DNA from: Geosiphon pyriformis uo1
Taxonomy: Eukaryota > Fungi > Glomeromycota
Direction: 5' to 3'
DNA length: 64,000 bases
NCBI GenBank assembly: GCA_016748015.1
Contig: JAAOMT010000657.1
Span: 62,001-126,000 of the forward strand
Positions 2,996 through 63,529 of this stretch are shown one piece after another (within the stretch, counting starts at the first letter, position 1; every line of letters starts with the position of its first letter). The notes beneath the pieces were generated by a model. The model worked only from the letters and a program-made list of their open reading frames with translations, searched no databases and was not told where the DNA came from. Both the position numbers and the translations under genes were made by a program.

Positions 2996-3058
2996 AGAAC
3001 AGTTCAATCCAAAAATATAACAAAACCAGAACAATATCTACAAAAAACATAACAAAAG

Positions 3059-4440
3059 ATAAACATACAAAAATATCAACAACTGCAACATTATATAAAC
3101 ACTTAACAGTTCAAGGAGAATTTATCTCAAACAGAACAAAAGAGTATTAAACAACAATCAAAATATTTTATCACTAACCAAAATATACTGTATCAAAAAA
3201 ATAGAAGAGATCTAAAGCAACCAACTAGAGTAATTACAGAGCCAGAAAAAGAGACAATATTATTCAACATGTACTCAAATCCAACAGCAGGACACTTTCA
3301 CAAAGAAGCAACCATGGAAAGAACCAGAAAAAAATACTATTGGCCATTAATATATCCAGATATCATCCAATATGTTCAAAATTGTGATGCTTGTCAGTGA
3401 AAAGAAGGAACAAGACCCAGTAAACCATTAAGACCAATCAAAGTGGGACAACTATTCGACCGGATTGGAATTGATTTAGTCGGACCATTAACAATTACCA
3501 GCAGAGGAAACAGGTACATAACAATAGCCATAGACTATCTCACTAAATGGCCAGAGGTGAAAGCAATTCAAAAAGCAGATGCAAAATCTGTTGTCAAATT
3601 TGTTCATCAAGATTTAATTTGTCAACACAGATGTCCAAAGGAATTATTATCAGACTAAAGAACTCATTTTGTGAACAAAACATTAACAGAATTGAGCCAA
3701 AGATTCGGAATTAAGAGACCACTATCATCACCATACCATTCACAAACCAATAGATTAGTCGAAAAATTCAACAGAACATTGTGTGAAGCAATAGCTAAAC
3801 TCAGCCAAAAAAACCAAAATGATTGGGATTTGTTGATATTATCAATACTATTTGCTTATCAGACAATGAAGCAAGATACTACACAAGCAACATCATTTGA
3901 ATTAGTATATGGTAGAACAACAACACTACCAGTGGAAATAGAAGTCAACACATACCCAACTAAACCAATAACAGAAAAAAATTTCAAAAACACATTGTTG
4001 AGAAGAACATATGACTTAATGGAAACATTAGAAAACAAACGACGAAGAACAGCTGATAACATACAAAGATCACAAGAAAAACAAAAAGAAAGACATGATA
4101 ACCAACTACCAGATAAACCAGTTGAGTTCAGGATTGGAGACAAAGTACTACTACATCGTACCAAAGTGGAAAAACAATGGAGTGGAAAATTTGACTCCAA
4201 ATGGGATGGACCATTTCACATAGAAGAAATTCTAGGAAATAGAGCTTACAAATTAAGATTAATAACAAAATCTTGACCAAAGCAGCACATGGAGATCAAC
4301 TGAAACCCTACCACTATACAGCATCATCATCCACCAGTAATATTCCACAATTAAGAGTACAGAGAATACTAGTTCAATCAAATAAGATTTCATGAGATCT
4401 GAAACCAATCATTATCATTGACAACAACACATCCAATTGA
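3059..4440 (+). pseudogene. GypA-1 integrase as a separate ORF (start ATG decayed to ATA); HHCC, DDE and GPF modules
   Basis: GHF...CDAC, IGIDLVGP, LLSD, VEKFNRTL, WDGPF; ATG is intact in GypA-3 at 24403-24405. Confidence 0.88.
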
Positions 4441-4493
4441 TTGACAAAAGAATATATAAGAACATGGTCAATGCGACAGAAGAGATCAGAAAA

Positions 4494-5123
4494 ATGGAAA
4501 TTACAGACAATATCCATTCACTAATCCAACAAATTTTTCAATTAATCCAACACTAGGAGATGGAAATTACAATCAATCAACAAACCATTCATTACAAAAA
4601 TACAGCAAAGATACCACAAAACAAAGCACAAAAAAAACTTGAAAATGTTGTTGACAAGATCATGACCAAAATAAAATTGGCCATAAAAGAACAATAAATA
4701 GTCGGATTACACAAAGAACTTACCAGAGAAACTTGGACTTGGTGGACACAACAATTTCCAAAAAATTATTGTTACTTTTACTTGGGACAACATGTAAATA
4801 TCCAGAACTTATATACAGATAAAACAAAGTGGTTATTTGACACAACAATACTATAACAACTAGAACATTTTGTAAAGAAAAACAACTTATCTACACAAGC
4901 TTGAGCTATATACTAAATACACACAGCATTTCAGGATTGACCAGGAATCCTACTCAACAAAGCAATAAATACAGTTACCAATAATCAATTGAGAAAAATT
5001 ACCAATGCTCAATTTGAAAAATTACAGACTCAAATAACACAAGTAATTCTCGAAAACGAAATTCAGGAAATACTTCAAGAGGGAGAATTAAAAGAATTTG
5101 ATTTCAATGGAGCTCAATATTAA
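4494..5123 (+). pseudogene. GypA-1 ORF3, ~209 aa, unknown function
   Basis: Manual translation MEITDNIHSL...YFYLGQ...QFEKL...GAQY* stays in one frame; internal stops are explainable as C>T changes; homolog at 22341-22969 (-). Confidence 0.75.
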
Positions 5124-5133
5124 AAGGAGGGGA
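5122..5133 (+). promoter_or_regulatory. GypA polypurine tract
   Basis: AAAAGGAGGGGA ending 3 nt before the LTR start TGTTA. Confidence 0.85.
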
Positions 5134-5136
5134 TAA

Positions 5137-6034
5137 TGTTATTCATAGAATATAGGAAATATAGTATTATTAGTCAGTAGATATTAACCAATCAGATGTG
5201 GATGTAGTAAAATGTGGAATTCTAAGATTCTTCTCAAGAATTGCAGGATTCCAGGAATTACAAGATTCTCACACAAGAAATTGCAGGATTCCAGAATTCC
5301 AGGATTCCTCTCAAAGGAATTGCAGGATTCCAAGAATTCCAGAATTCCTGTCGTAAAGAATTGAGGAATTGAGGAATCTCAATTATGTATATATAGCAGT
5401 AGTGTTAGAAGTTGAAAAAGAGACATCTGAGTTTAGATTTAATCTAAGCAACCCTCTACATCACAAATATCAATAAATAACTATTTTTATACCTTAATTT
5501 ATCCTCCACTATCAACTTCATGTTGATAGTAACAAATACTTAAACATGCTGGAACAATAGCTCTTGATCACAGTTATTAATAGGATACTAATCAAAAATT
5601 GCCTTGGCTCATTTTTTTATTTTATTTCTGTTTTTTTTATTTCTTTTCTTTATTTTATTTTCTTTGTTGTTGTATACTAATTGATTAAAAAATTAAGTGC
5701 TGAGTTATTGACATCAAGGATAGCCTGGTAAAAGACTCAGAAATAAGGGTAAGATTTTTATATATTATTGGATAGCTTACCAGAAAGGCACGACTACCAG
5801 ACTAAATCCAGCCACCACAATAAGAAAGAAATTGGGAAAACTCTCAAAAGAATACATTTACTATTGATGCTATTAAATCTCTGTTCATTATATAAAGAAC
5901 TCAACCAAAACCTTCAGATCACATAAAACCTTCGGAATTACTACCACCCACATCAACAGAAATCAACATAGCTTTTGAGCACCAAGTTACAGGTTTGTTA
6001 TTTAATTCCACAGCAAAAATAATCACCTGTAACA
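5137..6034 (+). repeat. GypA-1 3' LTR
   Basis: TGTTA...GTAACA; TATA at 5388-5395, AATAAA at ~5472; homologous to 21481-22327 (-) and 16565-16821. Confidence 0.88.
5213..5380 (+). repeat. U3 tandem repeats of the GypA LTR (GAATTGCAGGATTCCAGGAATT-like units)
   Basis: About 4 degenerate 35-40 bp units; also present at 22090-22260 (-). Confidence 0.75.
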
Positions 6035-21480: not shown

Positions 21481-24400
21481 TGTTATAGTTGAATTATTTG
21501 GAATTTTAAGTCAAATAACAAACCTGTAACTTGGTGTTCAAAAGCTATTTCCGTCAATAATATTCTGCAAATGTTGTATCTGAAGGTTTTGATGGAGTCT
21601 TTTGTATAATGGACAGAGATCCGATAGTGCGGCGATTTGTTGTTTGTTGTTAATTGTTTTCCAATTTCTTTCTCAGCTTGGTGGCTAGATTTATTCTAAC
21701 AGTCATGTTCTTCTGGTAAGCTAACTGATAATATATATAAATCTACCCTTATTTCTGGGTCTTTTACCAGGCTATCCGTGATGTCAATAACTCAGTGCTT
21801 TTAATCCTCAATCAATTAGTAGGCACAACAGAATTAAAGAAAGAAAGAAATAAAATAAAGAAAATAACAATGAAAATAAGCCAAGGCAATTATAGCTATA
21901 ATCAAGAGCTATTGTTCCAGCGTGGTTAAGTATCAATTACTATCAACATAAAGTGTTGATAGTAATGAGTGGATTGAGATATAAAATAATTATTTATTTG
22001 ATAATTGGGAATTGGAAGGTTGCTTAGATTAAATCTAAATTGAGAGGTTCATCTTTTCAGCTTCTAATCTTGCTGCTATATATACATAATTAAGATTCCT
22101 CAATTCCTTGATTCTTCACAACAGGAATCCTGAAATTCCTGGAATTCTGTGATTTCTTTGAGAAGAATCTTGGAATTCTGGAATCCTGCAATTCCTCATC
22201 AGGAAATTCTGAAATTCCTGGAATCCTGCAATTCCTGAGAGAAATCCTAAAATTCCACATTTACTATGCCTACTTCTGATTGGCTACTAATCATGTTAAT
22301 ATATTTCCTATATTTCTATAAGTAATATTATTTCCTCTTTTTAATATTGAGCTTTATTGAAATCCAACTCGTTTAATTCCTCCTCTTGAAGTATTTCCTG
22401 GATTTTGTTTTCGAGAATTACTTGTGTTATTTGGGTCTGTAATTCTTCAAATTGAGCATTGGTGATCTTTCCCAATTGATTACTGGTAACCATATCCATT
22501 GATTTGTTGAGTAATATTTCTGGTCTATTCTAAAATGCTGTGTGTATTCGGTATATGGCTCAGGCCTGTGTGAATAAGTTGTTCTTTTCCACAAAATGTT
22601 CTAATTGTTGTAGTATTCTTTTGTCGAATAATTGCTTTGTTTTATCCGTATATAGATTCTGGATATTTATATGTTGTCCCAAGTAAAAATAACAATAGTT
22701 TCTTGAAAATTGTTGTATCCATTAATTTCAAGTTTCTTTAGTCAACTCTTAATATAGTGTCTCTTTTGTCAACTCTCTTATTGTTAATTTTACTTTCGCA
22801 ATGATTTTGTCCACCGTATTTTCAGTTTCTTCTGTGTTCTGGGTTGCAATGTCTTTCTAGTATTTTGATATCGAATGGTTTGTTGATTGATTGTAATCTC
22901 CATTTTCTGGTGTTGGATCAATTGAAAAAGTTGTTGTACTAGTAAATGAATGTTGTCTGTAATTTCCATTTTCTGATATTTTCTGTCATGTCTACCGTGT
23001 CTTTATATATTTTTTTGCTGAATTAATTTAACATGTTGTTGTCGATAATAACTATTGGTTTCAGATCTCGTGGAATCTCATCTGGTTGGACTATTATTCT
23101 CTGTACTCCTAATTGTAAAATATTACTGGTAGATGGTAGTGTAATGTTGTGGTATGGTTTCAGTCAATCTCCATGTGCTGCTTTGGTTAAAATTTTGTTA
23201 TCCAGTCTTAATTTGTAAGCTCCATTTTCTAGAATTTCTTTTATGTGAAATGATCCATCCTATTTGGGATTGAATTTTCAACTCCATTGTTTTTCCACTT
23301 TGGTATGATGTAAGAGTACTTTGTCTCCAATCTTGAATTCAACTGGTTTGTCTAGTAGTTGACTATTATGTCTTTTTTTCTGTTTCTTTTGTGACTTTTG
23401 AATATTATCAGCTGCTCTTCTTCATTTGTTTTTCAATGTTTCCATTAATTCATATGTTCTTCTTAGCAATGTTTCTTGAAAATTCTCTTCTGTTATTGAT
23501 TCAGCTAGATATGTACTAATTTTTCTTTTTACTGGTAATGTTGCTGTTCTATCATATACTAATTTGAATGGTGTTGCTTGTGTAGTACCTTGCTTCATTG
23601 TTCGATAAGCAAATAATACTGATGGTATGAACAAATCCCATTTGTCCTGGTTTTTTTGGCTGAGTTTGGTAATTGCTTTACACAATGTTCTGTTGAATCT
23701 TTCGACTAATCTATTGGTTTGTGGATGGTATGGTAATGATAATGATCTCTTAATTCTGAATCTTTGGCTCAATTCTGTTAATGTTCTGTTCACAAAATGA
23801 GTTCTTTGGTCTGATAATAATTCCTTTGGACATCCGTGTCAACAAATTAAATCTTGATGAACAAATTTGGCAATGGATTTTGCATCTGCTCTTTGAATTG
23901 CTTTCACCTCTGGCCATTTAGTGAGATAGTCCATGGCTACTGCTATATATCTGTTTTCTCTGCTGGTAATTGTTAATGATCCAACTAAATCAATTCCAAT
24001 CCAGTCAAATGGTTGTCCCATTTTGATTGGTCTTAATGGTTCATTGGGTCTTGTTCCTCCTCTTTGCTGATAAGCATTACAATTTTGAACATATTGGATG
24101 ATGTCTGAATACATTGATGACCAATAGTATTTTTTTCTGGTTTTTTCTATGATTGTTTCTTTGTGAAAGTGTCTGGCTGTTGGATTTGAGTGCATGTTGA
24201 ATAATATTGTCTCTTTTTTTGGCTCTGTAATTACTCTGGTTGGCTGATCTAGATCCCTCCTATTTTTCTGATAAAGTATATTTTGGTAAGTGATAAAATA
24301 TTTTGATTGTTGTTTGATCCTCTTTCATTCCATTTGAGATAAATTCTCCTTAAACTGTTGAATGTTTATATAATATTAGAGTTGTTAATATTTTTGTATG

Positions 24401-24797
24401 TTCATCTTTTGTTATTTTTCGTTGGTATTGTTCTGGTTTTGTTATATTTTTGGGTTGAAATGTTCTTAGATTTGTCTTATTCACGACAAATCATTAGCAT
24501 TTCTGTTGTCTTTTCTTTTCTTATAGTGTATAGTATAAGTATATCGTGATAGTGCCATTTTCCATCTGGATTGGTGACTGTCATCAAATTCTTGCTTTTG
24601 AAGTGATGTTAACCCTTTATGATTCATGTATATATCAAACTTTTGGCTTAAATATTCATTCCACTTCATGACTGCCCAATAGATTGCTAAATGTTCTAGT
24701 TCTGGTGTTCCATAGTTCTTTTCGGCTGGTGTTAGATCTTGGCTGGCATATGCTACTGGATGTTCTCTGCCATCTGGTCCCTTCTGAGATAGTATTA
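21481..24797 (-). mobile_element. GypA-3 3' half (RH C-terminus, INT 23023-24405, ORF3 22341-22969, 3' LTR 21481-22327)
   Basis: Colinear with GypA-1 2670-6034; truncated by a deletion junction at 24797/24798. Confidence 0.9.
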
Positions 24798-28350: not shown

Positions 28351-28499
28351 TGTTATGGTTGAAACTCATAGTTTTTATTAGTTATCACATGTATTAGCCA
28401 CTGATGTCATATTGTTATGGTTGAAACACATAGTTTTTATTAATTATCACATGTATTAGCCACTGATGTTATATAATTAGCCACCCTATTTTTAGATAA

Positions 28500-34577: not shown

Positions 34578-35234
34578 ATGAACAATTATTTCCTGGATCA
34601 AAACATTCAAAACACTTTCTATACTCTCCATGAGTACTGGATTAAGAACTATCCAAATGCTACTCTGACTATTGGAAAACAAACCACTATAACAGATAAC
34701 AGTGGAACTTACACTGTTATTAGACCAAAGAAAACAACTACCAAAAGAGAAAGAATTGGTGGCAAAATGGATAAATACCTGCTGGAAAGCATAACAGCAG
34801 CAATACTTTCACCTTCCAGCACAATTGGAAAAACAATACAAGAAATCTTGCCCATAGACAAAAACTTGTCATATGGAAGACAACTAGAACTCTATGGTCG
34901 TCTTGGTGAAATCATAGAAGACATGAAGCTTATGAAGAAAACAACTTCAGAGATACAAGTGGAAATTTTGGGCATTATACGATTGGATGTTCTAAGAGTT
35001 TTGACCATTGCAAGAAGAGCCAGAACTCTTATACAAAGATTTGGTCTCTTGGATACAAAGCTTATTTTGCCTCAAGTACTATATACTCTATCCACAAAAG
35101 ACTTCAACAAACTAGTTAGTTTTGAGTTAGACAAAACCCTTTACATAGACTATCCCATAAATAGTTTGATTTCGCTGGAGCTCAATCTCTTTGGAGAGGA
35201 TGATGTTACGGTTAAAACACATAGTTTTTATTAA
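34578..35234 (+). CDS. GypB-6 ORF3, intact 218-aa protein of unknown function; overlaps the PPT and ends inside the 3' LTR
   Basis: Open frame 34482-35234; ATG (MNNYFL) kept in 5 of 7 copies and ATA in 2. Confidence 0.8.
   Translation: MNNYFLDQNIQNTFYTLHEYWIKNYPNATLTIGKQTTITDNSGTYTVIRPKKTTTKRERIGGKMDKYLLESITAAILSPSSTIGKTIQEILPIDKNLSYGRQLELYGRLGEIIEDMKLMKKTTSEIQVEILGIIRLDVLRVLTIARRARTLIQRFGLLDTKLILPQVLYTLSTKDFNKLVSFELDKTLYIDYPINSLISLELNLFGEDDVTVKTHSFY
35182..35203 (+). promoter_or_regulatory. GypB PPT region (TCAATCTCTTTGGAGAGGATGA)
   Basis: Immediately 5' of the 3' LTR start TGTTACGG. Confidence 0.8.
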
Positions 35235-37143
35235 TTATCACATGTATTAGNNNNNNNNNNNNNNNNNNNNTCTTGTAATTCATTGAATAAAGAAACGATT
35301 GAAAAGTACAACGATACCTGTTATTGATTCAAAGAATCGCCAAGTTGAAGCATAGAATAATAGCAGCAGTGTTATCTTGTTGACAATCATAGACTATTCC
35401 TCTACCTTCAGATTTAAGAAAAGATTAGTAACTGTGATTTTTATGAGACTGATCATGCACATTGAATTCCTACTTATTCAATTTGCTCCCTTATTGTAAT
35501 TCCTTCTTTGTTTATTTCCATCACCATACAATACTGTTCTCCCTTGCTATCCGTTAGCTTGTTACTCCAACCCGTAACAATATAATTAGCCACCATATTT
35601 TTAAATAGCAATCATTGACCTAATCATTGACCACTTTTCATAGCTATATAAGCAATGAATCTCTTAGCTGTAGAAAAGCATGTAATAACAAGCATCTGAA
35701 TAATCAAGAATAAATAAAATAACAACTTACATCTCAATCCTTCTCTTATTGCTAATTTCCCTTTCCCTACCTTCAAGTATCTGAACATCTTAAAGATAAA
35801 AGATTACTTGTTGGCCTTTTCCTGACATATATAATTATAGCATTTGAAGATTATTTGAATAAATGTGACTGAAAAGCACAAGTTGATACCTGATATTGAA
35901 TTCTAAGAGCGCCAATATAAGGCATAGAATTATACTAGTGGTAATCAATTGTTGACAGTACGGACTATCCCTCTACCTTCAGATTCCTTTGTTACCTTTT
36001 GAAAAGAATAGCAACTGAGATATTTTATAAGACTGATCTCGCACATTAAATCCATACTCATTCAATTTGCTCATTGAAGTTGAATTCCCTTTGATTATTT
36101 CCATCACCCTACAATTCTGTTCTCCCTTGCTATCCATTAGCTTGTTATTCCAACCCATAACATAAAAGTGATGCTCCCTGTGAGGTTGTTAAAATCTACT
36201 TTGTTTTCTATTGTATGGGTGATTATTCATACTTGCCACAACAATCAGAAGAACACTTTAAAGCACACAACAAAAATGATCTAAACTTTATTGAACTCAA
36301 TTCTTTGCCCTCCTGCTTGATTTGCTTTCCCATTGAAAAACAATCCAGCAGACAATTCCAAAACTTTTGGAACTGGTTTCTGGACAAGCATTCAGCTGAA
36401 ACCTATACAGCTTATACAACCTATTGTTACGGGTTGGAGTAACAAACTAACAGATAGCAAGAGAGAACAGTATTGTATGGTAATGGAAATAAACAAAGAG
36501 AAAATTACAATAAGGGAGCAAATTGAATAAATAGGAATTCAATGTGCATGATCAGTCTCATAAAAATCACAGTTACTAATCTTTTCTTAAATCTGAAGGT
36601 AGAGGAATAGTCTATGATTGTCAACAAGATAACACTGCTGCTATTATTCTATGCTTCAACTTGGCGATTCTTTGAATCAATAACAGGTATCGTTGTACTT
36701 TTCAATCGTTTCTTTATTCAATGAATTACAAGAGCAAGCCAATTGCTTCTCAGGCTAATTCTAACAAATACAAATCAAGAAGGGGAAAAGATAAGATATG
36801 TGAATGCCAACAAGTAGATACTTGAAGGTAAGGAAAGAGGAATAAGCGATTATAAGAGGAAGTAATTGATATTGTTTATTTCATTACTTTGATCATGTTA
36901 TTCTACAGTTAAGAGAATCATCGCTTATATAGCTATCTAAAGTGGTCAACGACCAGGTCAATAATCAGGTCAATGATTAGGTCAATGATCAGGTCAACGA
37001 TCAGTTCATTGATCAGGTCAATAATCAGGTCAATAATCAGATTAATGATCAGGTCAATGGTCAGGTCATTGATCAGGTCAATAATCACTATCTAAAAATA
37101 GAGTGGCTAATTATATGACATCAGTGGCTAATACATGTGATAA

Positions 37144-37780
37144 CTAATAAAAACTATGAGTTTCAACTGTAACATCATTCTCTCTAAAGAGATTGAGCTC
37201 CGGCGAAATCAAACTATTTATGGGATAGTCTATGTGAAGGGTTTTGTCTAACTCAAAACTAACTAGTTTGTTGAAGTCTTTTGTGGATAGGATATATAAT
37301 ACTTGAGGTGAAATAAGTTTTGTATCCAAGAGACCAAATCTTTGTATAAGAGTTCTGGCTCTTTTAGCAATGGTCAAAACTCTTGAGACATCCAATCGTA
37401 TAATGCCCAAAATTTCCTCTTGTATCTCTGAAGTTGTTTTCTATGATTTCACCAAGACGACCATAGAGTTCTAGTTGTCTTCCATATGACAAGTTTTTGT
37501 CTATGGGCAAGATTTCTTGTATTGTTTTTCCAATTGTGCTGGAAGGTGAAAGTATTGCTGCTGTTATGCTTTCCAGCAGGTATTTATTCATTTTGCCACC
37601 AATTTTTTCTCTTCTGGTAGTTGTTTTCTTTGGTCTGATAACAGTGTGAGTTCCACTGTTGTCTGTTATGGTGATTTGTTTTCCAATAGTCAGAGTAGCA
37701 TTTTGATAGTTCTTGATCCAGTACTTATGGAGAGTATAGAAAGCATTTTGAATGTTTTGATCCAGGAAATAATTGTTCAT
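37144..37780 (-). pseudogene. GypB-7 ORF3 (frameshifted)
   Basis: ORFs 37364-37876 and 37144-37410. Confidence 0.85.
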
Positions 37781-37821
37781 CTTGATTGAAGATACCTCTG
37801 TTTTGGGAATGGTGCATTTAT

Positions 37822-39135
37822 TTATATCTGATTTTTGCTGATCATTTGGGTCGGTATTACCACAACAGGTAACCAATCAGGTTGTTTGTGATATTTCTTG
37901 AGTCATGTACCATGAACAGGGCGATCATTGAAGATTGTTCCATATTGATCTTGTAAGATATAAGAACCATTGTTCAAAACTTTGTTGACTATAAAAGGTC
38001 CTTTCCAGCAGCTGGAGAATTTATTACCATAGACATTGTCTCTGTCTGAATGGTATTCCAAAACTAAGTCATCAACACTTAAGAAAAGTGTTTTATAGGT
38101 CTTTTTCTTTTTGAGCTTCTTTTGGAACTGTTTTATCTTTTCAAAGGCAATTATCTATGCTTCTACCAATGAGTCAAAAATGGTACCAAGTCTTCTTTAC
38201 AAAATGTCCTTGTAATCTCCTATTGTTATTTCTTCAAAAAGTATTGTTTCTATATTTGTTTCTATTGGTAGAGTTGCCATTTGTCCATAGAGCAGATAAA
38301 AGGGTTCATAACTTATTATGTCATGATTCACAGTTCTGTAAGTAAACAATGCTGAAGGCAATACTTTGTCCCATAGGTTGGTTTCTTTACTGGTTTTGGC
38401 TAGGGTTTCACATAGTGTTCTATTGAAACGTTCCACTAGGCCATTTGTTTGGGGGTGATAAGAGGAAGAGAGTTTATGACATATTCCCATTTTTCTGCAA
38501 AGTTCTTTAAACAGTGTACTGAGAAAAGCTCTTCCTCTATCAGATAAAAGTTCTTTGGGGCAGCCATGGCAACAAACAATATCTTCATAAATGAAATTGG
38601 CAATTGAGACTGCTGTTTGATTTGGGGTGGCTCTTGCTTCTACCCACTTTGTAAGATAGTCGGTAGCTGTAATAATGTATCTGTTGCCATCAGAAGTTAC
38701 TGTTAAAGGTCCAACAACATCTATACCAATTCTATCAAATGGTTGACCAACAGAGATTGGATGGATATCTTCCTTGCGATTGGGTTTTCCTCTTCTTTGG
38801 CAGGTATCACAGGTTTTGATGTATTCAGCAATGTCTTTTTCCAAAGTAGGCCAATAATAGCAAGCTAAAGTTTTCTGAATTGTTTTTGTTTTTCCAAAGT
38901 GTCCAGCTAATGAATCAATGTGCATATTGTAGATCACAATTTCTCTTTTTTTAAATTTAATAACTCTCTGGGGGCAGTCAGGATCTTTTTTATTTCTTTT
39001 ATATAACTGGTTCTGGCGAATCAAATAGAAATTTGATTGTTTGCACAAATGTTCTCTTTGCTGTCGAGTATAGTCTGGTGTGAATTGTTATTTACCCAAA
39101 AATTCCATTAAGGCAGAGTAGTTGTCCAAGTCCAT
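37822..39135 (-). pseudogene. GypB-7 integrase (separate ORF)
   Basis: ORF 38197-39048 with HHCC and D-D-E residues. Confidence 0.9.
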
Positions 39136-39200
39136 TATTGCGTTTGTTTGTGGGAGAGTTACAAATAATTAAGTTGGTTTGGTTTGAGAGGGTTTTGCTA

Positions 39201-41889
39201 TTACTAGATGGTAAGTCTGGAGAGAGCATCGGCATTTTGATGATTAGCTCTTTTGCAGTGTTGAATGTCATAGTTGAATTCATCCAAGTGGAGTATTCAG
39301 CAAGTTATCCATTTATGTTCCAGGTTTCTTTTGTTGCGTAGCCAAACCAAAGCTTGGTGATCTGTTACCACCAAAAATTTTACACCCTTAAGATATTTGT
39401 CCCAGTAGCTGGTAGCCCAAACTACTGCTAAACATTCTTGCTTAGTGACTGAGTAGTTTCTTTCTGCTGGTGTGAAAGTTCTACTGGCATATGCTATGGC
39501 ATGTTCCCTGTCATCTTCGTCTTTCTGGGAAAGAACAACACCAAGTCCATAGCCAGATGCATCAGTATGGAGGATAAAAGGTTGATCCAGATTAGGTTGC
39601 ATGAGAATGAGTTCTGTAACCAGTTTTTCTTTCAGAATTTCAAATGCTTTTTGTTGATGAGTGCCCCAGTGATAATTGATGTTTTTTCTAAGTAGCTGAT
39701 TGAGAGGAGCAGCAATTTTGGAGAAATCCTTGACAAACTTGTGATAATAAGAGGCCAAACCAAGGAAAGAGCATAGTTCATGAACATTCATTGGTTGTCT
39801 AATGTTTTGAACTTTTTCAATTTTGGCTGGATCAGGAAAGATTCCATCTTTTGTAATAAGATGGCCAAGGAACTGGGTGGATTGACATCCAAAGAATGAT
39901 TTGATTGGATTGATCTTGAGGCCAGCATTTCTAAAGAGGTCAAAAACCTTTTGCAAATGTTCAAGGTGTTCATCCCAGGTTTTTGAGTATACCATTATGT
40001 TGTCCAAGTAGACTAGAACAAAGTTTTCTTTTACTGATTCAAATACTTTGTCTATTAAGCATTGAAAGGTGGGAGGAGCATTTGTGAGACCAAAAGGCAT
40101 GACTGTGAATTCATAGGTGCCATACTTAGTGATGAAGGCAGTTTTCTTTCTGCTTTCTGGATCCATCTCTACTTGCCAGAATCTAGTAGTTAAGTCAATG
40201 GTTGAGAAGAAAGCAGCACCATGGAATTAGTCTAACATTGCATCAATCTTGGAAAGTGGGTACATGTCTCTTTTAGTAATGGCATTTAATTGGTAATAGT
40301 CAACACAAAAGCATAGGGTTCCTCCTTTCTTGGATACCACTACAACTGGGAATGCCCATTCACTCTTGGTTTCCTGTATGAATCCAAGGTTTTTTATTCG
40401 GGTTATTTCCTTTTTGATAAACTCATCATTGCACTGGTTGGATTGATAGGGCTTCAAATAGATGGGGCGAGTTTCTCTGGTAATGATGGTGTGTTGTATT
40501 ACATGTGTACGTCCAGGAGGTTCACTTTCTTTTGAGATAACTGGGCTATTTCTAGCCAGCAGGTTTTCAATGTCTATCTTTCTTTCTTCTGGAGAGAGTT
40601 CTCTTTGTTCTACAACCAGTGATTGGATTTTAGGTGGTTTGTTTTCAAAGAACTTTTGGACTTCTTTTATTTCTTTATGGGGTATCAAGCTGATTGGTTC
40701 CCAATCTTTATAATAGATCAGGCAGAACATGCATTCATTACTAGGAGAATACAATGGTTTGTCACACCAGCACCAGGCACAAGGACCATGCCACCAATAA
40801 CTGTATTTGGCTTTCTTGCCTGGCTTTCTGTCAAAGGTTCTTCTGAGCATGTCATAATAAGGCCAGCAGATCAGCTTGCCATTAACAATGATTCCTTCTT
40901 TATCTGCCTTGACATTATCCAGTGGTTTGCCATTGCTGGTGAAGATGGTAAAGTTCAGCAGTTTTTTCTTGTTTTTCTTGTTCTTCTTTTTCCTCACTTT
41001 CTTCATCATCTGATTCATCTGATTCATTTTCTTCTGGGCTTTGCTTGGGCACTGGGGGAGTTATCCAATGGCAACACTTAACCACAATGGGTTTCTCACC
41101 ACATCTGATGGTTAGTTCACAGAGTTCATAATCAAGCAAAGCTTTTGCTTTCTTGAGCCATTCATTGCTAACAATGATGGTGTATTTTTTCACTTCAGAT
41201 ACTTCTATATCAGTTTCAATGCTGATGCCATTGATGCAGACAGGAATGGCTTTGGCTATGCCAAGACCTTTTTTCTTATCACCATGCACATTGGTCATTG
41301 GTCGTGTGGATGGTTCATCAATTTTTCTGCCAATTGCTTCAAGAAAGTGTTTAGCAATAACACTAACAGATGATCCACTGTCTAGGATCAAATCGATGAA
41401 GTAGCCAGCCACTTGGGCTTTGCAAATTAGAGAAGTGACATTGCTATTGTCAGCAAGTCCAGCTTGGCGAGGGCATTTGTTGGTTTTGGGTGTCTTTTTT
41501 TTTGGAATCAGAGATTTGCAAAGATCTTTTCTGAATTGTGGATGGGTCATTAATTGGCCAAAGGTTATATGTGCTGGGGTTTCCATGAGGTCTTTGACAA
41601 CAGAATAGGGGCCGGATTTTTGTACTATTTCTGGGGGTTCCAACTTTGGAGGGTTCTTGAAAACTTTGGCTTTTGGGGGCTCATTGTTGTCAGCAGTTGA
41701 TGTAGAAGCTTTATTGGGGTCCAGAACGAAATCAACTTTGGCTTTTTTCTTCTTTCTTGTCTATTTAGAGGGGTTGATTGCTAATTCATCCATGTCATGG
41801 TCATCATCAGTTAAGTTAAAAGTGTAAAAGGGGTTTTCTTCTGGTTGGCTTGCACTCTCACCCTTTGGAGGTGCGCCTACCAGTTTAAA
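39201..41889 (-). pseudogene. pol: GypB-7 pol (PR, acidic and Cys-rich insert, RT, RH)
   Basis: ORFs 40915-41643, 40227-41027 and 39297-40166. Confidence 0.92.
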
Positions 41890-43429
41890 GGCTGATAAAC
41901 AGTGGCTTCAACTAGGGGATCCTCTCCAAAGAAATTGATGTTGGCATGATTGGGTCTTTGGTTGGGCACATTGTTGTTGTTGATCCTGTTGTTCTGAGCA
42001 TCATTGTTTCTGGGAACTGGTGGAGGCAGTGGAGGATTGTTGCAATCTCTTGAAAAGTGTCCAGTTAATCCACAGCGATAGCATACAGGTGGGCCACGAT
42101 TTTGTTGTCTTTGATAAGGTGGTTGCTGGGGCTAATTGAAGCGTGGTTCAAATCTGGGTCTTTGTGGTTGCTGATTTTCTCTGACTGCTTGGGCTAAGGG
42201 TTCTAATAACCGAACAAGATTTGCTGTGAGTCTGTCTATTAACTGTTCATTTGGATCTTGAGTGTGAGTGGCAAAAGAAGTAGCAGCCATTTGAGGGCAG
42301 GAGCCATGACAGGAACAGGAGCAAAAACTGGTAGTGTGGATCCCAAGTGCATCCTTTGGTTATCTTCAATTCTTTGTGCTAATTCAATGGCCATATCCAT
42401 GGTGGGATTATCTTTCAGGGCCAGAAGGGGCCAAAGAGCATATGATAGATCAGTTCTCAATCCTTTTGTGAAGGAGTGAATTTTCTGCTCTTCTGTCTAA
42501 TTTCTCCCAGAGTCTACACGTTTGATTAGCTTTCTAATAGCCTTGGCATATTCAGTCACTACTTCTCCAGGACCTTGAGTTTTTCTTTCTAATTCCATGT
42601 GCCATTTGGATATTAATATTGGGGTTCTGAACTTGGTCTCAAATCAGGTAGTGAAAGAGGTATTTTCTTCTCCAGCATTGATTGGTGTCCATCTGATTAT
42701 TTTGTGTTGAGCATTGGCATCTGTTTCTTGTGAAAACCAGGTAGCAGAAGAGTCTTGGAGGTAGCCACCAACAATTTGGAACTTGTATTCTTCATCATAC
42801 TGGTTGGCTATGGTAGCTCTCTCAAAATCATCCAACCATTCAATTGGATCTTGTGCATCACCTCTAAATAGTGGTAGTGGGGTATTGTTTCTTCTTCCTA
42901 AAGCAATTTGTATACCTTGGAGGGCGGCCAGAATGTTTGCTTGCATGGGGTCATTAGCCATTGGTTCAGGGGTAACTGTTTGTGTAGACAAGTCTGATTC
43001 ACTTGATAAAAGGTCAAAAACAGGGGCAGTTTGGTAACTTTCTTCTTCTGTTTCAAAGGAAGTTTCAGTTGCTTGATGGGCAGCAATCCAAATATGGATT
43101 TGATGATTCAGATATTCTAAATCAGGAGGCTGTTGTTCAAAGGTTGCAGAATATAAGAGTTGATTGATACTGTTGTTTCTTTCTTCAAAGTCATTTTTAA
43201 AATAAACTTGGTCAAAGTAATAGGTCATATAAGCTGTGTAGGTTTCAGCTGAATGCTTGTTCAGAAACCAGTTCCAAAAGTCTTGGAATTGTCTACTGGA
43301 TTGTTCTTCAAGGGGGAAACAGATCAAGCAGAAGGGCAGAGGATTAAGTTCAATGAAATCTAGATTGTTTCTGTTGTGTGTTGCAAAGTGTTCTTCTGAT
43401 TGCTGTGGCAGATATGAGTAATCACCCAT
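41877..43429 (-). pseudogene. gag: GypB-7 gag
   Basis: ORFs 42644-43429 and 42239-42460; CCHC knuckle. Confidence 0.9.
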
Positions 43430-45007
43430 ACAATGAGGGAATAAGTAAATTTTGACAACCTCACAGGGAGCACCACTTTTATGTTACGGGTTGGAATAAC
43501 AAGCTAACGGATAGCAAGGGAGAACAGTATTGTATGGTGATGGAAATAAACAAAGAGGGAATTACAATAAGGGAGCAAATTGAATAAGTAGGAATTCAAT
43601 GTGTGTGTTCAGTCTCATAAAAATCACAGTCGCTAATCTTTTTTTAAATCTGAAGGTAGAGGAATAGTCCGTGATTGTCAACAAGATAACACCACTGCTA
43701 TTATTCTATGCCTCAACTTGGCAATTCTTAGAATCAATAACAGGTATCATTGTGCTTTTCAATCATTTTTTTATTCAATGAATTACAAGAGCAAGCCAAT
43801 TGCTTCTCAGGCTAATTCTAACAAATACAAATCAAGAAGGGGAAAAGATAAGGTATGTAAATGCCAACAAGTAGATACTTGAAGGTAAGGAAAGGGGAAT
43901 AAGCAATTATGAGAGAAAGTAATTGATATTGTTTATTTCGTTACTTTGATCATGTCATTCTACAGCTAAGGGAATCATCACTTATATAGCTATCTAAAGT
44001 GGTCAATGACCAGGTCAATGATCAGGTCAATGATCACTATCTAAAAATAGGGTGGCTAATTATATGACATCAGTGGCTAATACATGTGATAACTAATAAA
44101 AACTATGGGTTTCAACCATAACACTATTACTTTGACCAAGCTTATTTTGAAGACGACTTTGAAGAAAGAAACAACAGTATTAATCAGCTCTTATATTCTG
44201 CAACCTTTGAACAACAGCCCACTGATTTCAAATATTTGAATCATCAAATCCACATTTGGATTGCTGCCCATCAAGCAACTGAAACTCCATTTGAAACAGA
44301 AGAAGAAAGCTACCAAACTGTTCCTGTTTTTGATCTTTTATCAAGTGAATCAGACTTATCTACACAAACAGTTACCCCTGAACCAATGGCTAATGACTTC
44401 ATGCAAGCAAACATTCTGGCCGCCCTCCAAGGTATACAAACTGCTCTAAGAAGAAGAAACAATACTCCACTACCACTATTTAGATGTGATGCACAAGATC
44501 CAATTGAATGGTTGGATGATTTTGAGAGAACTGCCACAGCCAATCAGTATGATGAAGAATACAAGTTCCAAATTATTGGTGGCTACCTCCAAGGCTCTCC
44601 TGCTACAAGAAACAGATGCCAATGCTCAACACAGAATAATCAAATAGATACCAACCAATGCTGAAGAAAATACCTCTTTTACTACCTGGTTTGAGGCCAA
44701 GTTCAGAACTCCAATATTAATATCCAAATGGCGCATGGAATTGGAAAAAAGAACCCAAGGCCCTGGAGAAGTAGAGACTGAATATGCCAAAGCTATTAGA
44801 AAGCTAATCAAACGTGTAGACTCTGGGAAAAACTGGACAGAACAAAAGATCCATTCCTTCACAAAAGAATTAAGAACAGATCTATCATATGCTCTTTGGC
44901 CTCTCTTGGCTTTAAAAGACAACCCAATAATGGATATAGCTATTGAACTGGCACAAAGAATTGAAGATAACCAAAGGATGCATTTGGGATCCACACTTCT
45001 AGTTTTT

Positions 45008-45851: not shown

Positions 45852-48534
45852 TTTAAACTGGTAGGCGCACCTCCAAAAGGTGAGAGTGCAAGCCAACCAG
45901 AAGAAAACCTTTTTTATGTTTTTAACTTAACTGATGATGACCATGACATGGATGAACTAGCAATCAACACCTCAGAATCAACAAGGAAGAAGAAGAAAGC
46001 CAAGGTTGATTTCATTTTAGATACAAATAAACCATCCACATTAACTGCTAATAATAATGAGCCACCAAAGGCTAAAGTTTTTAAGAACCCTCCAAAGTTG
46101 GAACCCCCAGAAATAGTAAAAAAATCTGGTCCTTATTCTGTTGTCAAAGATCTCATAGAAACTCCTGCACACATTACTTTTGGCCAACTAATGATCCACC
46201 CACAATTTAGAAAAGATCTCTGCAAATCTCTAATTTCCAAGAAGAAAACACCAAAAACCAATAAATGCTCTTGCCAAGCTGGACTTGCCAACAACAGCAA
46301 TGTTACCCCATTAATTTGCAAAGCCCAAGTGGCTGGCTATTTTATTGACTTGATTCTGGACAGTGGATTATCTGTTAGCGTCATTGCCAAACACTTTTTG
46401 GAAACAATTGGAAAAAAGATTGATGAACCTTCCACCTGACCAATGACCAATGTACATGGTGACAAAAAGAAAGGTCTGGGCATAGCCAAAGCTGTTCCTG
46501 TCTGTATCAATGGCATCAGCATTGAAACTGACATGGAAGTTTCTGAAGCCAAGGAATACACTATTATTGTTGGAAATGAATGGCTCAAGAAAGCCAAAGC
46601 ATTACTTGACTATGAACTTTGTGAGCTAACCATCAGATGTAGTGAGAAGCCCATTGTGGTTAAGTGTCACCACTGGACAATTCCTCCAACACCAAAACAG
46701 AATCAGGAAGAAGAACAATCAGAGGAATCAGATGATGAAGAAAGTGATGATGAAGAAGAACAAAAGGAACAAGAAAAAACTTCTGAACTTGCCTATACTA
46801 CCTTCACCAGCAATGGATAATGTCAAAGCTGACAGAAAAGGAATCATTGTAAATGGCAAGCTGATCTGCTGGCTCTACTATAATATTCTAAGAAGAACTT
46901 TTGACCAGAAGCCTAGCAAGAAAGCCAAGTACCATTATTGGTAACATGGTTCTTGTGCCCAGTGCTGGTGCAATCAACTCTTGTATTCTCCAAGTGACAA
47001 ATGCAAATCCTGCCTGATCTATTACAAAGATTGGGAACCAATCAGTTTGATACCTAGAGAAGAATTGAAAGAAGTCCAAAAGTCTTTTGAAAATGAACCA
47101 CCTGAGATCCAATCACTAGTTGTAGAACAAAGAAAACTCTCTCCAGAAGAAAGAAAAATAAACATTGAAAATCTGCTGGCTAGAAACAGCCCAGTTATCT
47201 CAAAAGAAGGTGATACTCCTGGATGAACTCATGTAATACAACACACCATCACCACCAGAAAAACTCACCCCATCCATTTGAAGCCTTATCGATCTAATCA
47301 CCAAAATGATAAGATCATCAAGAAAAAAATAAACTGGATGAAAGAACTTGGATTCATACAAAAAACCAAAAGTGAATGGGCTTTCCCAGTTGTAGTGGTA
47401 TCCAAAAAAGGTGGAACCCTACACTTCTGTGTTGATTATCACCAATTAAATGCCATCACTGAAAGAGACATGTACCCACTTTCCAAGATTAATACAATGC
47501 TGGACCAATTCAAAAATGCTGCTTTTTTTTCAACTATTGATCTAACTGCTGGATTCTGGCAAGTAGAGATGGATCCAGAAAGCCGGAAGAAAACCGCCTT
47601 CATCACCAAGTATGGCATCTATGAATTCACAGTCATGCCTTTTGGTCTCACCAATGCCCCTCCCACCTTTCAACACTTAATGGATAAAGTATTTGAATCA
47701 GTGAAAGAAAACTTTGTTCTGGTCTATCTGGACGATATAATGGTGTACTCAAAAACCTGGGATGAACATCTTGTACATTTGCAAAAGGTTTTTGATCTTC
47801 TCAGAAATGCAGGTCTTAAGATCAACCTGATCAAATCTTTCTTTGGAAGACAATCCACCCAATTCCTTGGTCATCTTATCACAAAAGATGGAATCTTTCC
47901 TGACCCAGCTAAGGTTGAAAAAGTCCAGAACATTAGACAACCAATGAATGTTCATGAACTATACTCTTTCCTTGGTTTGGCTTCTTATTATCACAAATTT
48001 GTCAAGGATTTCTCCAAAATAGCTGCTCCACTTAATCAGCTACTCAGGAAAAACATCAACTACCATTGGAGCACACACCAGCAAAAAGCTTTTGAAACTC
48101 TAAAGGAAAAACTAGTTACTGAACCAATTCTGAAGCAACCTGATCTAGATCAACCTTTCATCCTCTACACTAATGCATCTGGCTATGGACTTGGAGCTGT
48201 TCTATCCCAAAAAGATGAAGATGGCAAAGAACATGCCATAGCATATGCCAGTAGAACTCTCTCACCAGCAGAGCAGAACTACTCAGTGACTAAACAAGAA
48301 TGCCTGGCAGTAGTATGGGCTACTAGTTATTGGAACAAATATCTTCTTGGTGCCAAATTCCTGGTAGTAACAGATCACCAAGCTTTGGTTTGGCTGCACA
48401 ACAAAAAGAAGCTAGAACACAAAAGATTAACTCGCTGGATACTCCACTTGAATGAATTCGACTATGATATTCAACATCGCAAAAGAGCTAATCATCAAAA
48501 CACTGATGCTCTCTCCAGACTTACCACCAAGTGA
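45852..48534 (+). pseudogene. pol: GypB-5 pol; RT-RH ORF 47278-48534 retains YLDD
   Basis: LILDSG, YLDD, ASGYGLG, TDHQAL, DALSR. Confidence 0.92.
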
Positions 48535-57979: not shown

Positions 57980-58006
57980 GTCAAAATTCACTTATTTCCT
58001 CATTGT

Positions 58007-59526: not shown

Positions 59527-62174
59527 GCACACCTCTAAAGGGTGAGAGTGCAAGCCAACCAAAAGAAAACCCCTTTTATGCTTTTAACTTAACTGATGAT
59601 GACCATGACATAGATGAACTAGCAATTAACACCTCAGAATCAACAAGGAAGAAGAAGAAAGCCAAGGTTGATTTCATTTTAGATCCAAATAAACCATTCA
59701 CATCAACTGCTGATAATAATGAGCCACCAAAGGCTAAAGTTTTTAAGAATCCTCCAAAGTTGAAACCCCCAGAAATAGTACAAAAATCTGGTCCTTATTC
59801 TGTTGTCAAAGATCTCATGGAAACTCCTGCACACATTACTTTTGACCAACTAATGACCCACCCACAATTCAGAAAAGATCTCCACAAATCTCTAATTCCT
59901 AAGAAAAAAACACCAAAAACCAATAAACGCCTTTGCCAAGCTGGACTTGCTGACAACAGCAATGTCACCCCATTAATTTGTAAAGCCCAAGTGGCTGGCT
60001 ATTTCATTGACTTGATCCTGGACAGTGGATCATCTGTTAGCGTCATTGCCAAACACTTTTTGGAAGCAATTGGGAGAAAAATTGATGAACCTTCCACCTG
60101 ACCAATGACCAATATACATGGTGACAAGAAGAAAGGTCTGGGCATAGCCAAAGCTGTTCCTGTCCGTATCAATGGCATCAGCATTGAAACTGACATGGAA
60201 GTTTCTGAAGCCAAGGAATACAATATTATTGTTGGAAATAAATGGCTCAAGAAAGCCAAAGCATTACTTGACTATAAACTTTGTAAGCTAACTATCAGAT
60301 GTAGTGAGAAGCCTATTGTGGTTAAGTGTTGCCACTGGACAATCCCTCCAACACTAAAACAGAATCAGGAAGAAAAACAATCAGAGGAATCAGATGATAA
60401 AGAAAGTGATAATGAAGAAGAACAAGAGGAACAAGAAGAAACTGCTGAACTTGCCTATACCACCTTCATCAGCAATGGCAAGCCACTGGACAATGTCAAA
60501 GCTGACAGAGAAGGAATCATTGTAAATGGCAAGCTGATCTGCTGGCCCTACTATGATATCCTAAGAAAAACTTTTGACCAAAAGCCTAGCAAGAAAGCCA
60601 AGTACCATTATTGGTGGCATGGTCCTTATGCCCAGTGCTGGTGCAAATCCTGCCTGATCTATTACAAAGATTGGGAACCAATCAGTTTAATACCAAGAGA
60701 AGAATTAAAAGAAGTACAGAAGTCCTTTGAAAATGAACCACCTGAAATCCAATTATTAGTTGTAGAACAAAGAGAACTCTCCCCAGAAGAAAGAAAGATA
60801 GACATTAAAAATCTGTTGGCTAGAAATAGCCCAGTTATCTCAAAAGAAGGTGATACCTCAGGACGAACTCATGTGATACAACACACCATCACCACCAGAG
60901 AAACTTGCCCCATCCATTTGAAACCATATTAATCCAATTAGCACAATGATGAATTCATCAAGAAAGAGATAAACCAGATGAAAAAACTTGGATTCATACA
61001 AGAAACCAAGAGTGAATGGGCTTTTCCAGTTGTAGTGGTATCCAAGAAAGGTGGAACCCTACATTTCTGTGTTGACTACCACCAATTAAATGCCATCACT
61101 GAAAGAGACATGTACCCACTTTCCAAGATTAATGCAATGCTGGACCAATTTAAAGATGCTGCTTTCTTTTCAACCATTGATCTAACTGCTGGATTCTGGC
61201 AAGTAGAGATGGATCCAGAAAGCCGGAAGAAAACTGCCTTTATCACCAAGTATGATACCTATGAATTCACAGTTGTGCCTTTTGGTCTCACTAATGCCTC
61301 TCCCATCTTTCAATGCTTAATGGATAAAGTATTTGAATCAGTGAAAGAAAACTTTGTTTTGGTCTATCTGGACAATATAATGGTATACTCAAAAACCTGG
61401 GATGAACATCTTGTACATTTGCAAAAGGTTTTTGATCTTCTCAGAAATGCAGGTCTCAAGATCAACCTAATCAAATCTTTCTTTGGAAGACAATCCACCC
61501 AATTCTTTGGTCATTTTATCACAAAAGATGGAATCTTTCCTGACCCAGCTAAGGTTGAAAAAGTCCAGAACATTAGACAACCAATGAATGTTTATGAACC
61601 ATGCTCTTTCCTTGGTTTGGCTTCCTATTATCACAAATTTGTTAAGAATTTCTCCAAAATAGCTGCTCCACTTAATCAGCTACTCAGGAAAAATGTCAAC
61701 TACCATTGGGGCACACACCAACAAAAAGCTTTTGAAACTCTAAAGGAAAAACTAGTTACTGAACCAATTCTGAAGCAACCTGATCTAGATCAACCTTTCA
61801 TCCTCTATACTGATGCATCTGGCTATGAACTTGGAGCTGTTCTATCCCAGAAAAATGAAGATGGCAAAGAACATGCCATAGCATATGCCAGTAGAACTCT
61901 CTCACCAGCAGAGCAGAACTACTCAGTGACTGAACAATAATGCCTGGCAGTAGTATGGGCTACTAGTTATTGGAACAAATATCTTCTTGGTGCCAAATTC
62001 CTGGTAGTAACAGATCACCAAGCTTTGGTTTGGTTACACAACAAAAAGAAGCTGGAACATAAAAGAATAACTCACTGAATACTCCACTTGGATGAATTTG
62101 ACTATGATATTCAACATTGCAAAAGAGCACATCATCAAAACACTGATGCTCTCTCTAGACTTACCATTCAGTGA
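59514..62174 (+). pseudogene. pol: GypB-9 pol (PR-RT-RH)
   Basis: ORFs 59760-60101, 60105-60932 and 60978-61940. Confidence 0.92.
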
Positions 62175-62239
62175 CAATACAACTACCTCAAACCAAACCA
62201 ACCTAATTATTAGTAATTCTCTCACAACCAAACACGATA

Positions 62240-63529
62240 ATGGACTTGGACAACTACTCTGTCTTAATAGAATTTTTGGGTAAAGGACAATACCCACCAG
62301 AATACAATTGACAGCAAAGAAAACATTTGTGCAAACAATCAAATTTCTATTTGATGCACCAAAACTAACTATACAAAAGAAACAGAAAAGATTTTGACCA
62401 CCCCCAGAGAGTCATAAGATTTGAAGAAAGAAAAATTGTGATCTACAATATGCACACTGATCCATTAGCTGGACACTTTGGAAAAACAAAAACAATTCAG
62501 AAAACCTTAGCTCGCTATTATTGGCTGAGTACATCAAAACTTGTGATATCTGCCAAAGAAGAGGAAAACCCAATTGCAAAGAAAACATCCATCCAATCTC
62601 TGTTGGCCAACCCTTTGACAGAATTGGTATAGATGTTGTTGGACCATTAACAATAACTTCTGATGGCAACAGATACATTATCACAGCTACTGACTATCTT
62701 ACAAAGTGGGTAGAAGCAAGAGCCACCCCAGATCAAACAGCAGTTTCCATTGCTAATTTCATTTATGAAGATATCATTTGTTGCCATGGCTGCCCCAAAA
62801 AACTTTTATCTGATAGAGGAAGAGCTTTTCTCAGTACACTGGTTGAAGAACTTTGTAGAAAAATGGGAATATGTCACAAACTTTTCTCCCCTTATCACCT
62901 CCAAACAAATGGCCTAGTGAAACGTTTTAATAGAACACTGTGAAACCTTAGCCAAAACAAGTGAAGAAACAAACTTATGGAACAAAGTACTGCCTTCAGC
63001 TTTGTTTGCTTATAGAACTGTAAATCATAACATAACAAGTTATGATTCTTTTTATCTGCTCTATGGACGAATGACAACACTACCAATAGAAATTGGTATT
63101 GAGACAATACCCTTTGAAGAGATCACAATAGGAAATTACAAAGACATTTTGCAAAGGAGACTTGGTACCATTCTTGACTTATTTGTAGAAGCATGAATAA
63201 TTGTCTTTGAAAAGGTAAAACAGTTCCAAGAAAAGCTTAAAAAGAAGAAAACTTATAAAACACTTTCTTTAAGTGTTGGTGACTTAGTTTTGGAATACTG
63301 CTCAGACAGAGACAATGTCTATGGTGATAAATTCTCTAGCCGGTGGAAAGGTCTCTTTATAGTCAACAAAGTTTTGAAAAATGGTTCTTATATTCTTCAA
63401 GATCAATCCGGAACAATCTTTAATGATCATTCTGTTCATGGCACGTGACTTAAGAAATATCACAAATGACCTGATTGGTTACCAGTTGTGGTAATACCAA
63501 CCCAAATGATTAGCAAAAACCAAGTATAA
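62240..63529 (+). pseudogene. GypB-9 integrase (separate ORF, broken)
   Basis: ATG GAC TTG GAC at 62240; ORF 62521-62943. Confidence 0.88.

Follow-up and report, generated by a model that had tools for sequence, protein, structure and literature searches.

A Ty3/Gypsy lineage associated with Glomeromycotina in which integrase is a separate gene

Introduction

Canonical Ty3/Gypsy retrotransposons (Metaviridae, for example yeast Ty3) are bounded by two long terminal repeats (LTRs) with TG..CA ends and carry a tRNA primer-binding site (PBS), a polypurine tract (PPT), gag and a pol gene whose domains follow the order protease (PR), reverse transcriptase (RT), RNase H (RH) and integrase (INT). Errantiviruses and elements of the Athila/Tat type carry a third open reading frame (ORF) in the stretch from pol to the 3' LTR. 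The pol polyprotein of Ty3/Gypsy elements normally has INT as its final portion (PMC3248453). Foamy viruses make their Pol from a spliced RNA and package it through a complex of Gag, genome and Pol (PMC7828637), and in the Ginger1 DNA transposons an INT is paired with a Ulp1 domain in the transposase (PMC2836005). Here, we describe GypB-7, an LTR element in a 64,000-nucleotide stretch of the genome of Geosiphon pyriformis uo1 (contig JAAOMT010000657.1, positions 62,001 to 126,000; this whole analysed stretch is called the window). GypB-7 is a dead Ty3/Gypsy copy, and its lineage, which is associated with Glomeromycotina, departs from the canonical plan in that INT is not fused to Pol. Our overall reading, to which we assign a probability of roughly 0.6, is that GypB-7 is the decayed representative of a lineage in which Pol ends after RH, INT has a gene of its own that is likely expressed from a separate and probably spliced RNA, and the enzyme is predicted to be delivered unfused.

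Results

Integrase is a separate reading frame in the window copies and in their relatives

The junction between RH and INT is readable in five GypB copies and in two copies of a second family of the window, GypA. In all five GypB junctions, Pol stops four codons past an ADALSR-type motif that marks the end of RH, and INT starts exactly 65 nt after this stop in a different frame (with ATG in three copies and ATA in two). Both GypA junctions have a stop after RH at the same motif, followed after 63 and 60 nt by the INT start (ATG in one, ATA in the other), which lies in the RH frame behind two to three shared in-frame TAA stops. The order of RT-RH stop, spacer and ATG-initiated INT proposed in the initial annotation is thus borne out at every readable junction, with ATA in place of ATG in some. 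For the spacer of one GypB copy, 505 pooled genomic contigs, from a run that may be the window's own source, could be evaluated over 62175-62232, a range that takes in neither the first stop nor the ATG. Within it, no variant reaches 5% at the TAA of the INT frame or at the second TAA of the RH frame, and the only spacer indel, a 1-nt loss at about 10% depth, does not restore the frame. As a separate observation, the third reading frame is open for about 60-70 codons across the RH end, the spacer and the INT start of all five GypB copies (39092-39304, minus strand, in GypB-7) and contains a conserved Met, which may be chance.

The same separation is found in related proteins. The long RT-RH relatives (761-2170 aa; 120 rows listed, 16 dropped for poor cover) divide sharply by RT identity: among the matches listed, INT is present in none of the 50 at 49% identity or above, versus 47 of the 54 below 49%. 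In half of the 50 without INT, the protein terminates no more than 30 aa from RNase H; the other 25 bear an unrelated tail, and many of the 50 are unbroken Gag-Pol frames of 1200-1850 aa. Among shorter relatives at 46% identity or above, RH lies at most 30 aa from the end in 101 of 113; since this set (up to 760 aa) is too short to accommodate INT, it is informative only on the end of Pol. Rhizophagus irregularis and R. clarus are among the named members of the split lineage. Additional domains are found in several of these proteins: about 30 relatives (P0304, P0319, P0333 and others) continue after RNase H into an acidic tail of 200-400 aa that contains a conserved Cys/His motif and is without match in Pfam, Rhizophagus-type relatives (P0076, P0111, P0115) have a P-loop kinase-like tail in this position, and P0299 and P0300 carry a NUDIX domain ahead of the protease.

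A search from the other side, with the intact INT of the related locus L001 as query and no length limits, gave a matching picture. RH is missing from 15 of the 16 top-scoring rows that cover the N-terminus, and these 15 begin no more than 30 aa from the query Met, 14 of them with a Met; among the 114 weaker rows, RH lies upstream in 78. The INT Met occupies a single alignment column across 19 proteins of 31-42% identity (rows picked for a Met start), and two of the stand-alone INTs are named Paraglomus proteins (20 were looked up, most of them unnamed). RT-RH and INT genes also occur together on intact DNA, separated by a spacer of 30 nt in the same frame in L001 and of 521 nt in L043; in L192, INT follows the Pol tail after 102 nt on the same DNA, and in L193, a short contig without RT, the INT ATG lies 94 nt past the stop of an upstream ORF. 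The initial annotation had proposed to survey related genomes for the stop-spacer-ATG layout and had named a continuous RH-INT frame in the youngest copies as one finding that would speak against it: the intact loci L001, L043 and L192 all have the split layout. L192 (2-1149) is itself of the acidic-tail type and likewise has a separate INT. The lineage, an old one, therefore encodes INT in a frame of its own, and the split is no product of decay. Scans elsewhere returned little, with clade members at only 2 of 80 loci in a metagenome scan with generic motifs and no split element among the loci examined in viral contigs. Several lineage members (L192, L193, L194, P0109, P0528) come from assemblies labelled as bacterial or archaeal and are probably stray eukaryotic contigs.

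Phylogenies place the split within Ty3/Gypsy. The best solved relative of the RT-RH is the RT of Ty3 (4ol8, 7q5b; E about 6e-80), and in an RT-RH tree (FastTree, 283 rows collected by likeness to the query) it falls among fused Gypsy Pols, with 164 non-fused rows, including GypA, GypB, L001 and L043, grouped together without any fused member and with GypA and GypB on different branches of this group. In an INT tree (IQ-TREE quick, 60 of 115 rows), a clade with SH-aLRT support of 99 unites 21 split or stand-alone INTs, four fused Pols and five further stand-alone proteins. The fused Pols are P0448, P0426, P0485 and L041; the RH-INT linker of P0448 is very short, as if re-fused.

A candidate splice acceptor precedes the integrase start

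Given that INT begins with its own Met, the question arises of how it is expressed. In all six families that could be compared, a YAG trinucleotide (TTAG in five) ends 26-32 nt before the INT start: at 26 nt in GypB, 27 in GypA and L193, 28 in L192, 30 in L001 and 32 in L043. In a shuffle test, a YAG fell into any common 7-nt window in 19 of 100000 trials (p about 2e-4), and in 44 of 100000 when L001 was left out. This feature, which is new in the present analysis, hints at a spliced INT message, and it is tempting to speculate that the YAG is the splice acceptor for a subgenomic INT RNA, a tentative assignment from sequence that we place a little short of even odds. A single recoding signal is argued against by the variation in spacer length (30-521 nt) and frame.

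Several points weigh against this proposal and against the overall reading. The width of the YAG window was picked after seeing the data, and only six families enter the test. In L001 and in the major GypB type, the TAG of the YAG doubles as an RH-frame stop, and TTTG replaces TTAG in GypB-7 and its closest copy (two of five copies; about 6% of pooled depth). Neither a splice donor nor a consistent branch point was identified for the acceptor candidate. In each of the five GypB copies, the INT start is overlapped by a TAA in the RH frame, and in L043 a short upstream ORF ends on the start of INT, both of which fit reinitiation. For most of the protein relatives, the downstream DNA is unseen, and some may lack INT altogether. 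Finally, support at the base of the non-fused RT group is only 0.43, and the four fused Pols lie inside the INT clade, one of them (P0448) nested with strong support. A single origin of the split is thus unsupported, and since P0448 is nested among stand-alone INTs, fusion or fission happened more than once.

The best-surviving alternative is termination-reinitiation on the genomic RNA, in which ribosomes would stop after RH or after a short spacer ORF and restart at the INT ATG. The two overlaps just described favor it, as do the spacers of only 30-65 nt in L001, GypA and GypB, and such a mechanism would couple the amount of INT to that of Pol. However, the GypB Pol stop lies 65 nt upstream, two stops ahead of the overlap, the spacers of L192, L193 and L043 measure 94-521 nt, and the YAG at its fixed distance is left unexplained, so that we regard reinitiation as unlikely, if still a serious competitor of splicing.

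We give less credence to internal promoters that would yield unspliced subgenomic RNAs for INT and ORF3, the frame between INT and the 3' LTR. The initial annotation had noted a TATA-like motif before ORF3, and such a word, TATAAATAAA, is indeed present 46 nt before the GypB ORF3 ATG, with a similar word before the ORF3 of GypA (ORF3A); moreover, the spacers are AT-rich and the fixed YAG could mark a start site for INT. The motif is nevertheless weak: TATA-like words are frequent in DNA of about 65% A+T, the GypB word contains the INT stop codon and can also be read as AATAAA, and the word in the first GypA copy lies only a few nucleotides ahead of the first Met.

A joined product, with Pol and INT linked across the spacer by readthrough, frameshift or a short intron, is very improbable. 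RH and INT do share a frame in GypA and L001, and short introns are common in fungi, but both frames are closed by stops in GypB, where no slippery site intervenes, GypA has its two to three in-frame stops, the spacers vary in frame and length, and the INT Met keeps to one column of the alignment of selected rows described above; it is on the varying spacers and the GypB stops that we consider readthrough or frameshifting unlikely. Two donor/acceptor pairs for an in-frame RH-INT intron were checked by hand, and neither gives the INT frame. That the split arose by decay, C-to-T changes and indels having broken a continuous pol in dead copies, can be set aside almost entirely, because the heavy deamination (CpG ratio 0.14 in the window; 40 of the 42 mismatches between the GypB-7 LTRs are transitions), the derivability of both TGA and TAA from CGA and the position of the first stop codon outside the evaluable part of the pooled contigs are outweighed by an identical 65-nt out-of-frame spacer in all five copies and contradicted by the same layout in unbroken relatives and in the intact loci L001, L043 and L192.

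The split integrases have a Ginger1-like sister group

The sister group of the split-lineage integrases consists of the five further stand-alone INT proteins of the INT clade, four of which have a C-terminal Ulp1 domain (Pfam). This sister group is Ginger1-like, a label given to these five on their domain content. In the Ginger1 study, no Gypsy lineage was found to cluster significantly with Ginger1 (PMC2836005). GypB INT resembles the INTs of Ginger1 and of YPYY-type Gypsy elements in having its own start codon, a 4-bp target duplication and this sister group; unlike Ginger1, it belongs to an LTR element that also encodes gag and RT, and it lacks a Ulp1 or OTU tail. A more far-reaching proposal, that a widespread fungal LTR lineage expresses INT through a spliced subgenomic RNA of its own and packages it separately from Pol, and that this INT is the closest relative of the Ginger1 transposases among LTR elements, appears doubtful to us as a whole.

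Anatomy and decay of GypB-7

The features of GypB-7 and of the copies used for comparison are collected in Table 1. With its two TG..CA LTRs, a target-site duplication and the order PR-RT-RH-INT, GypB-7 has the hallmarks of a Ty3/Gypsy element. The two LTRs match at 600 of 642 aligned letters, and the copy number of the 12-nt tandem repeat (36930-37110) differs between them as well as among copies. The upstream part that the initial annotation had ascribed to GypB, namely, gag, a predicted -1 frameshift site, PR and an insert, could be located in GypB-7. TTTAAAC with its hairpin occurs at six sites in the window (one of them in a partial duplicate beside a gap of N letters), and because slippery site and hairpin recur at every copy of the site found, a -1 frameshift from gag to pol is likely. 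The insert between PR and RT measures about 130 aa; this Cys/Trp-rich segment (40620-41060, minus strand) and the gag N-terminal extension of about 155 aa (42962-43429, minus strand) are both without Pfam match. INT ends shortly after a GPF/Y-like motif, and no chromodomain match was obtained in the INT pieces or in the relatives P0368 and P0380.

GypB-7 had been singled out as the cleanest gap-free example of its family. It contains no N at any position, but it is dead: relative to other copies, it has suffered deletions of 1, 5 and 20 nt, each causing a frameshift, near 42296 in gag, near 40950 in pol and near 37442 in ORF3, respectively. There are four internal stops in INT and more in gag and RT-RH, and the RT active site reads YLDN.

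Table 1. Coordinates of GypB-7 and of the other window copies discussed (window positions)
Feature	Positions	Strand	Remarks
GypB-7	36425..44123	-	Full-length decayed Ty3/Gypsy LTR element, nested within another GypB copy
5' LTR	43482..44123	-	642 nt
3' LTR	36425..37174	-	750 nt; longer 12-nt repeat array
Target-site duplication	44124..44127, partner 36421-36424		4 bp
PBS	43459..43475	-	Complementary to tRNA CCA end; 6 nt past 5' LTR
LTR box 1	43647..43657, also 36590-36600	-	Complementary to 3' side of tRNA-Met(CAU) anticodon arm
LTR box 2	43609..43620, also 36552-36563	-	Complementary to 5' side and loop of tRNA-Met(CAU) anticodon arm
gag	41877..43429	-	ATG 43429, stop 41879-41877; N-terminal extension, CCHC knuckle; disrupted
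Slippery heptamer T TTA AAC	41883..41889	-	With downstream hairpin; predicted -1 gag-pol frameshift
pol (PR, insert, RT, RH)	39201..41889	-	Stop 39203-39201; Pfam
RH-INT spacer	39136..39200	-	65 nt; stops in RH frame and INT frame
Stand-alone INT ORF	37822..39135	-	437 codons; H2C2 and rve core; ATG 39135, stop 37824-37822
TATAAATAAA	37817..37826	-	TATA-like or AATAAA-like word overlapping INT stop; function putative
ORF3	37144..37780	-	ATG 37780, stop 37146-37144; 218 aa in intact copies
PPT	37175..37185	-
ORF3 of another GypB copy	34578..35234	+	Open, 218 aa; search query
RT-RH frame of another GypB copy	47227..48534	+	Open, ends at natural stop; search query
RH stop, 65-nt spacer and INT ATG of a GypB copy	62172..62242	+	Copy at 57268-64000
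GypA copy 1 (partial)	1..6034	+	dUTPase, RT-RH (stop 2993-2995), 63-nt spacer, INT (from 3059), ORF3A (4464-5123), PPT, LTR (from 5137)
GypA copy 2 (partial)	21485..24797	-	RH stop, 60-nt spacer, ATG-INT, ORF3A, LTR

The slot between integrase and PPT carries family-specific genes

The third ORF of GypB (ORF3B, 218 codons) has numerous relatives: among the 120 listed, 20 match this length exactly, 65 share the start Met, and 118 are named Geosiphon pyriformis proteins, the other two being the window's own, which marks the host as Geosiphon or a very near relative within Glomeromycotina. Variation among six window copies of ORF3B falls on the third codon position in 79 of 163 variable columns (p 5e-5), and transversions do so in 13 of 22 (p 0.012), a bias shared by RT and INT and not seen in the LTR. 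Since variation favors third codon positions, ORF3B was a selected gene. No Pfam, PHROG or PDB match of ORF3 passed the threshold, and ORF3B gave no usable Atlas match and an AlphaFold model with a pLDDT of 40. ORF3 also lacks a hydrophobic stretch of the kind expected for a membrane anchor (best 19-residue means of 1.33 and 0.79).

The initial annotation had postulated a conserved non-Env accessory gene that ends before the PPT. A real, selected and non-Env gene is indeed present, but it is not conserved, and in GypB it runs through the PPT into the 3' LTR. ORF3A (219 codons, or 210 from its second Met) shows no detectable similarity to ORF3B (no profile hidden Markov model match at E 10; hhalign probability 0.1%), the third ORF of L192, 146 aa long and ahead of the PPT, is unrelated (no Pfam match; Atlas leads below 0.9 only), and in L043 the PPT follows directly after INT, with no third ORF. 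The slot between INT and PPT is therefore best seen as a site whose cargo varies, comparable to the dUTPase, NUDIX and P-loop domains that relatives carry. The dUTPase domain lies upstream of RT in GypA (434-1633, plus strand) and is also found in the related Pols P0106 and P0314.

LTR boxes match a tRNA-Met anticodon arm

The GypB LTR contains two boxes (12 and 11 nt) complementary to the two halves of the anticodon arm of tRNA-Met(CAU), and GypA has 10 nt of one of them. We take this tRNA to be the elongator Met tRNA, and presumably the PBS matches the fungal Met tRNA. Extended pairing with the primer is known from yeast Ty elements. In viral contigs, the letters of the boxes with one base between them lie inside tRNA-Met genes, of phage type, at 16 of the 20 such loci scanned. 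Twelve gapped matches to the boxes in viral contigs (nine viewed or scanned) look like chance in phage DNA or like a tRNA gene and were rejected.

Window context

The window consists almost wholly of nested retroelements, in a genome of which LTR elements are reported to cover 41.2% (PMC11952901). As the initial annotation had stated, the LTRs of GypA and GypB cannot be aligned, and they have in common only words of chance length, ACCTTCAGAT among them. This word occurs 12 times in the window versus 0.33 expected, an excess explained by the repetition of the LTRs. As a meaningful shared 10-mer it was rejected, being not significant alone and accompanied by further 10-mers common to both LTRs. 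An extra LTR-end-like stretch with a ACCTTCAGAT box at 16733-16742 (plus strand) is related to the GypA LTR end. Between the LTR elements lie nested pieces resembling long interspersed nuclear elements (non-LTR) at 16565-19843, 26765-28412, 51087-53941 and 55063-57267, which match RRM, endonuclease and RT and include an RNase H-like stretch.

Discussion

The split between Pol and INT is a real, lineage-wide departure within Ty3/Gypsy. GypB-7 shares with canonical members the LTR ends, PBS, PPT, gag and domain order, and the lineage differs from them in that INT does not follow the plan of a single Pol polyprotein: in GypB it is a separate ORF without chromodomain, followed by a non-Env third ORF. 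GypB resembles errantiviruses and Athila/Tat elements in that a third ORF follows pol on the side of the 3' LTR, but in the GypB lineage this ORF, of about 218 aa, differs between families and has no membrane-anchor segment, so that it does not qualify as the membrane-anchored Env of an errantivirus. The description as complex-retrovirus-like was therefore overstated, as there is neither an env gene nor a demonstrated regulatory protein or spliced RNA, and the RT is of the Ty3 type. Nor is the element a Ginger1 DNA transposon, given its LTRs and RT and an INT without OTU/Ulp1 tail. The closest parallel for the expression of INT may be the foamy viruses (Spumaretrovirinae), where an enzyme made apart from Gag provides the analogy for the model that we propose; in these retroviruses, however, the whole of Pol is separate and env is present, whereas in the GypB lineage only INT is separate and splicing is predicted. 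We found no description of a Gypsy lineage with stand-alone INT among the titles and opening abstract lines listed by full-text literature searches, a coverage outside which lie GyDB, Repbase, subscription papers and supplements, where an entry could exist, and the split layout is not described in the available portions of PMC11952901, PMC3248453, PMC2836005, PMC13465315, PMC11075540, PMC7828637 and 10.64898/2026.05.21.726589.

How might such an element have worked? In the cycle that we envisage, the full-length RNA would be translated into Gag and, through the predicted -1 frameshift, into Gag-PR-RT-RH, in keeping with the observed layout. tRNA-Met at the PBS would likely prime reverse transcription, perhaps held in place by the two LTR boxes. 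INT, whose own Met is seen across the lineage, would most likely be translated from a subgenomic RNA spliced at the YAG, and the free enzyme might be brought to the particle or to the cDNA through contacts with RNA, Gag or RT, in analogy to foamy-virus Pol. The slot between INT and PPT would hold a family-specific cargo gene, under selection while GypB was active. A free INT would need a packaging route that is not known from textbook retrotransposons.

By keeping INT fused to Gag-Pol, LTR retrotransposons and most retroviruses control the amounts of their enzymes and bring INT into the particle, and a large and successful lineage without this fusion needs another way to express and deliver INT. 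The predicted acceptor makes the expression route testable in RNA data of mycorrhizal fungi. The finding also matters for annotation, as INT and ORF3, standing as separate frames, have been labelled "hypothetical proteins" of the host (for ORF3, the 118 named matches mentioned above) and turn up in prokaryote-labelled assemblies too. Finally, the Ginger1-like sister group bears on the question, raised in PMC2836005, of whether Ginger1 arose from Gypsy elements or fed them. Should the doubtful link to Ginger1 prove true, an RT element would either have taken up a Ginger1-like transposase gene as a module or have been a ready-made source of Ginger1, and the lineage would offer a living test of the exchange of parts between DDE transposases and retroelements.

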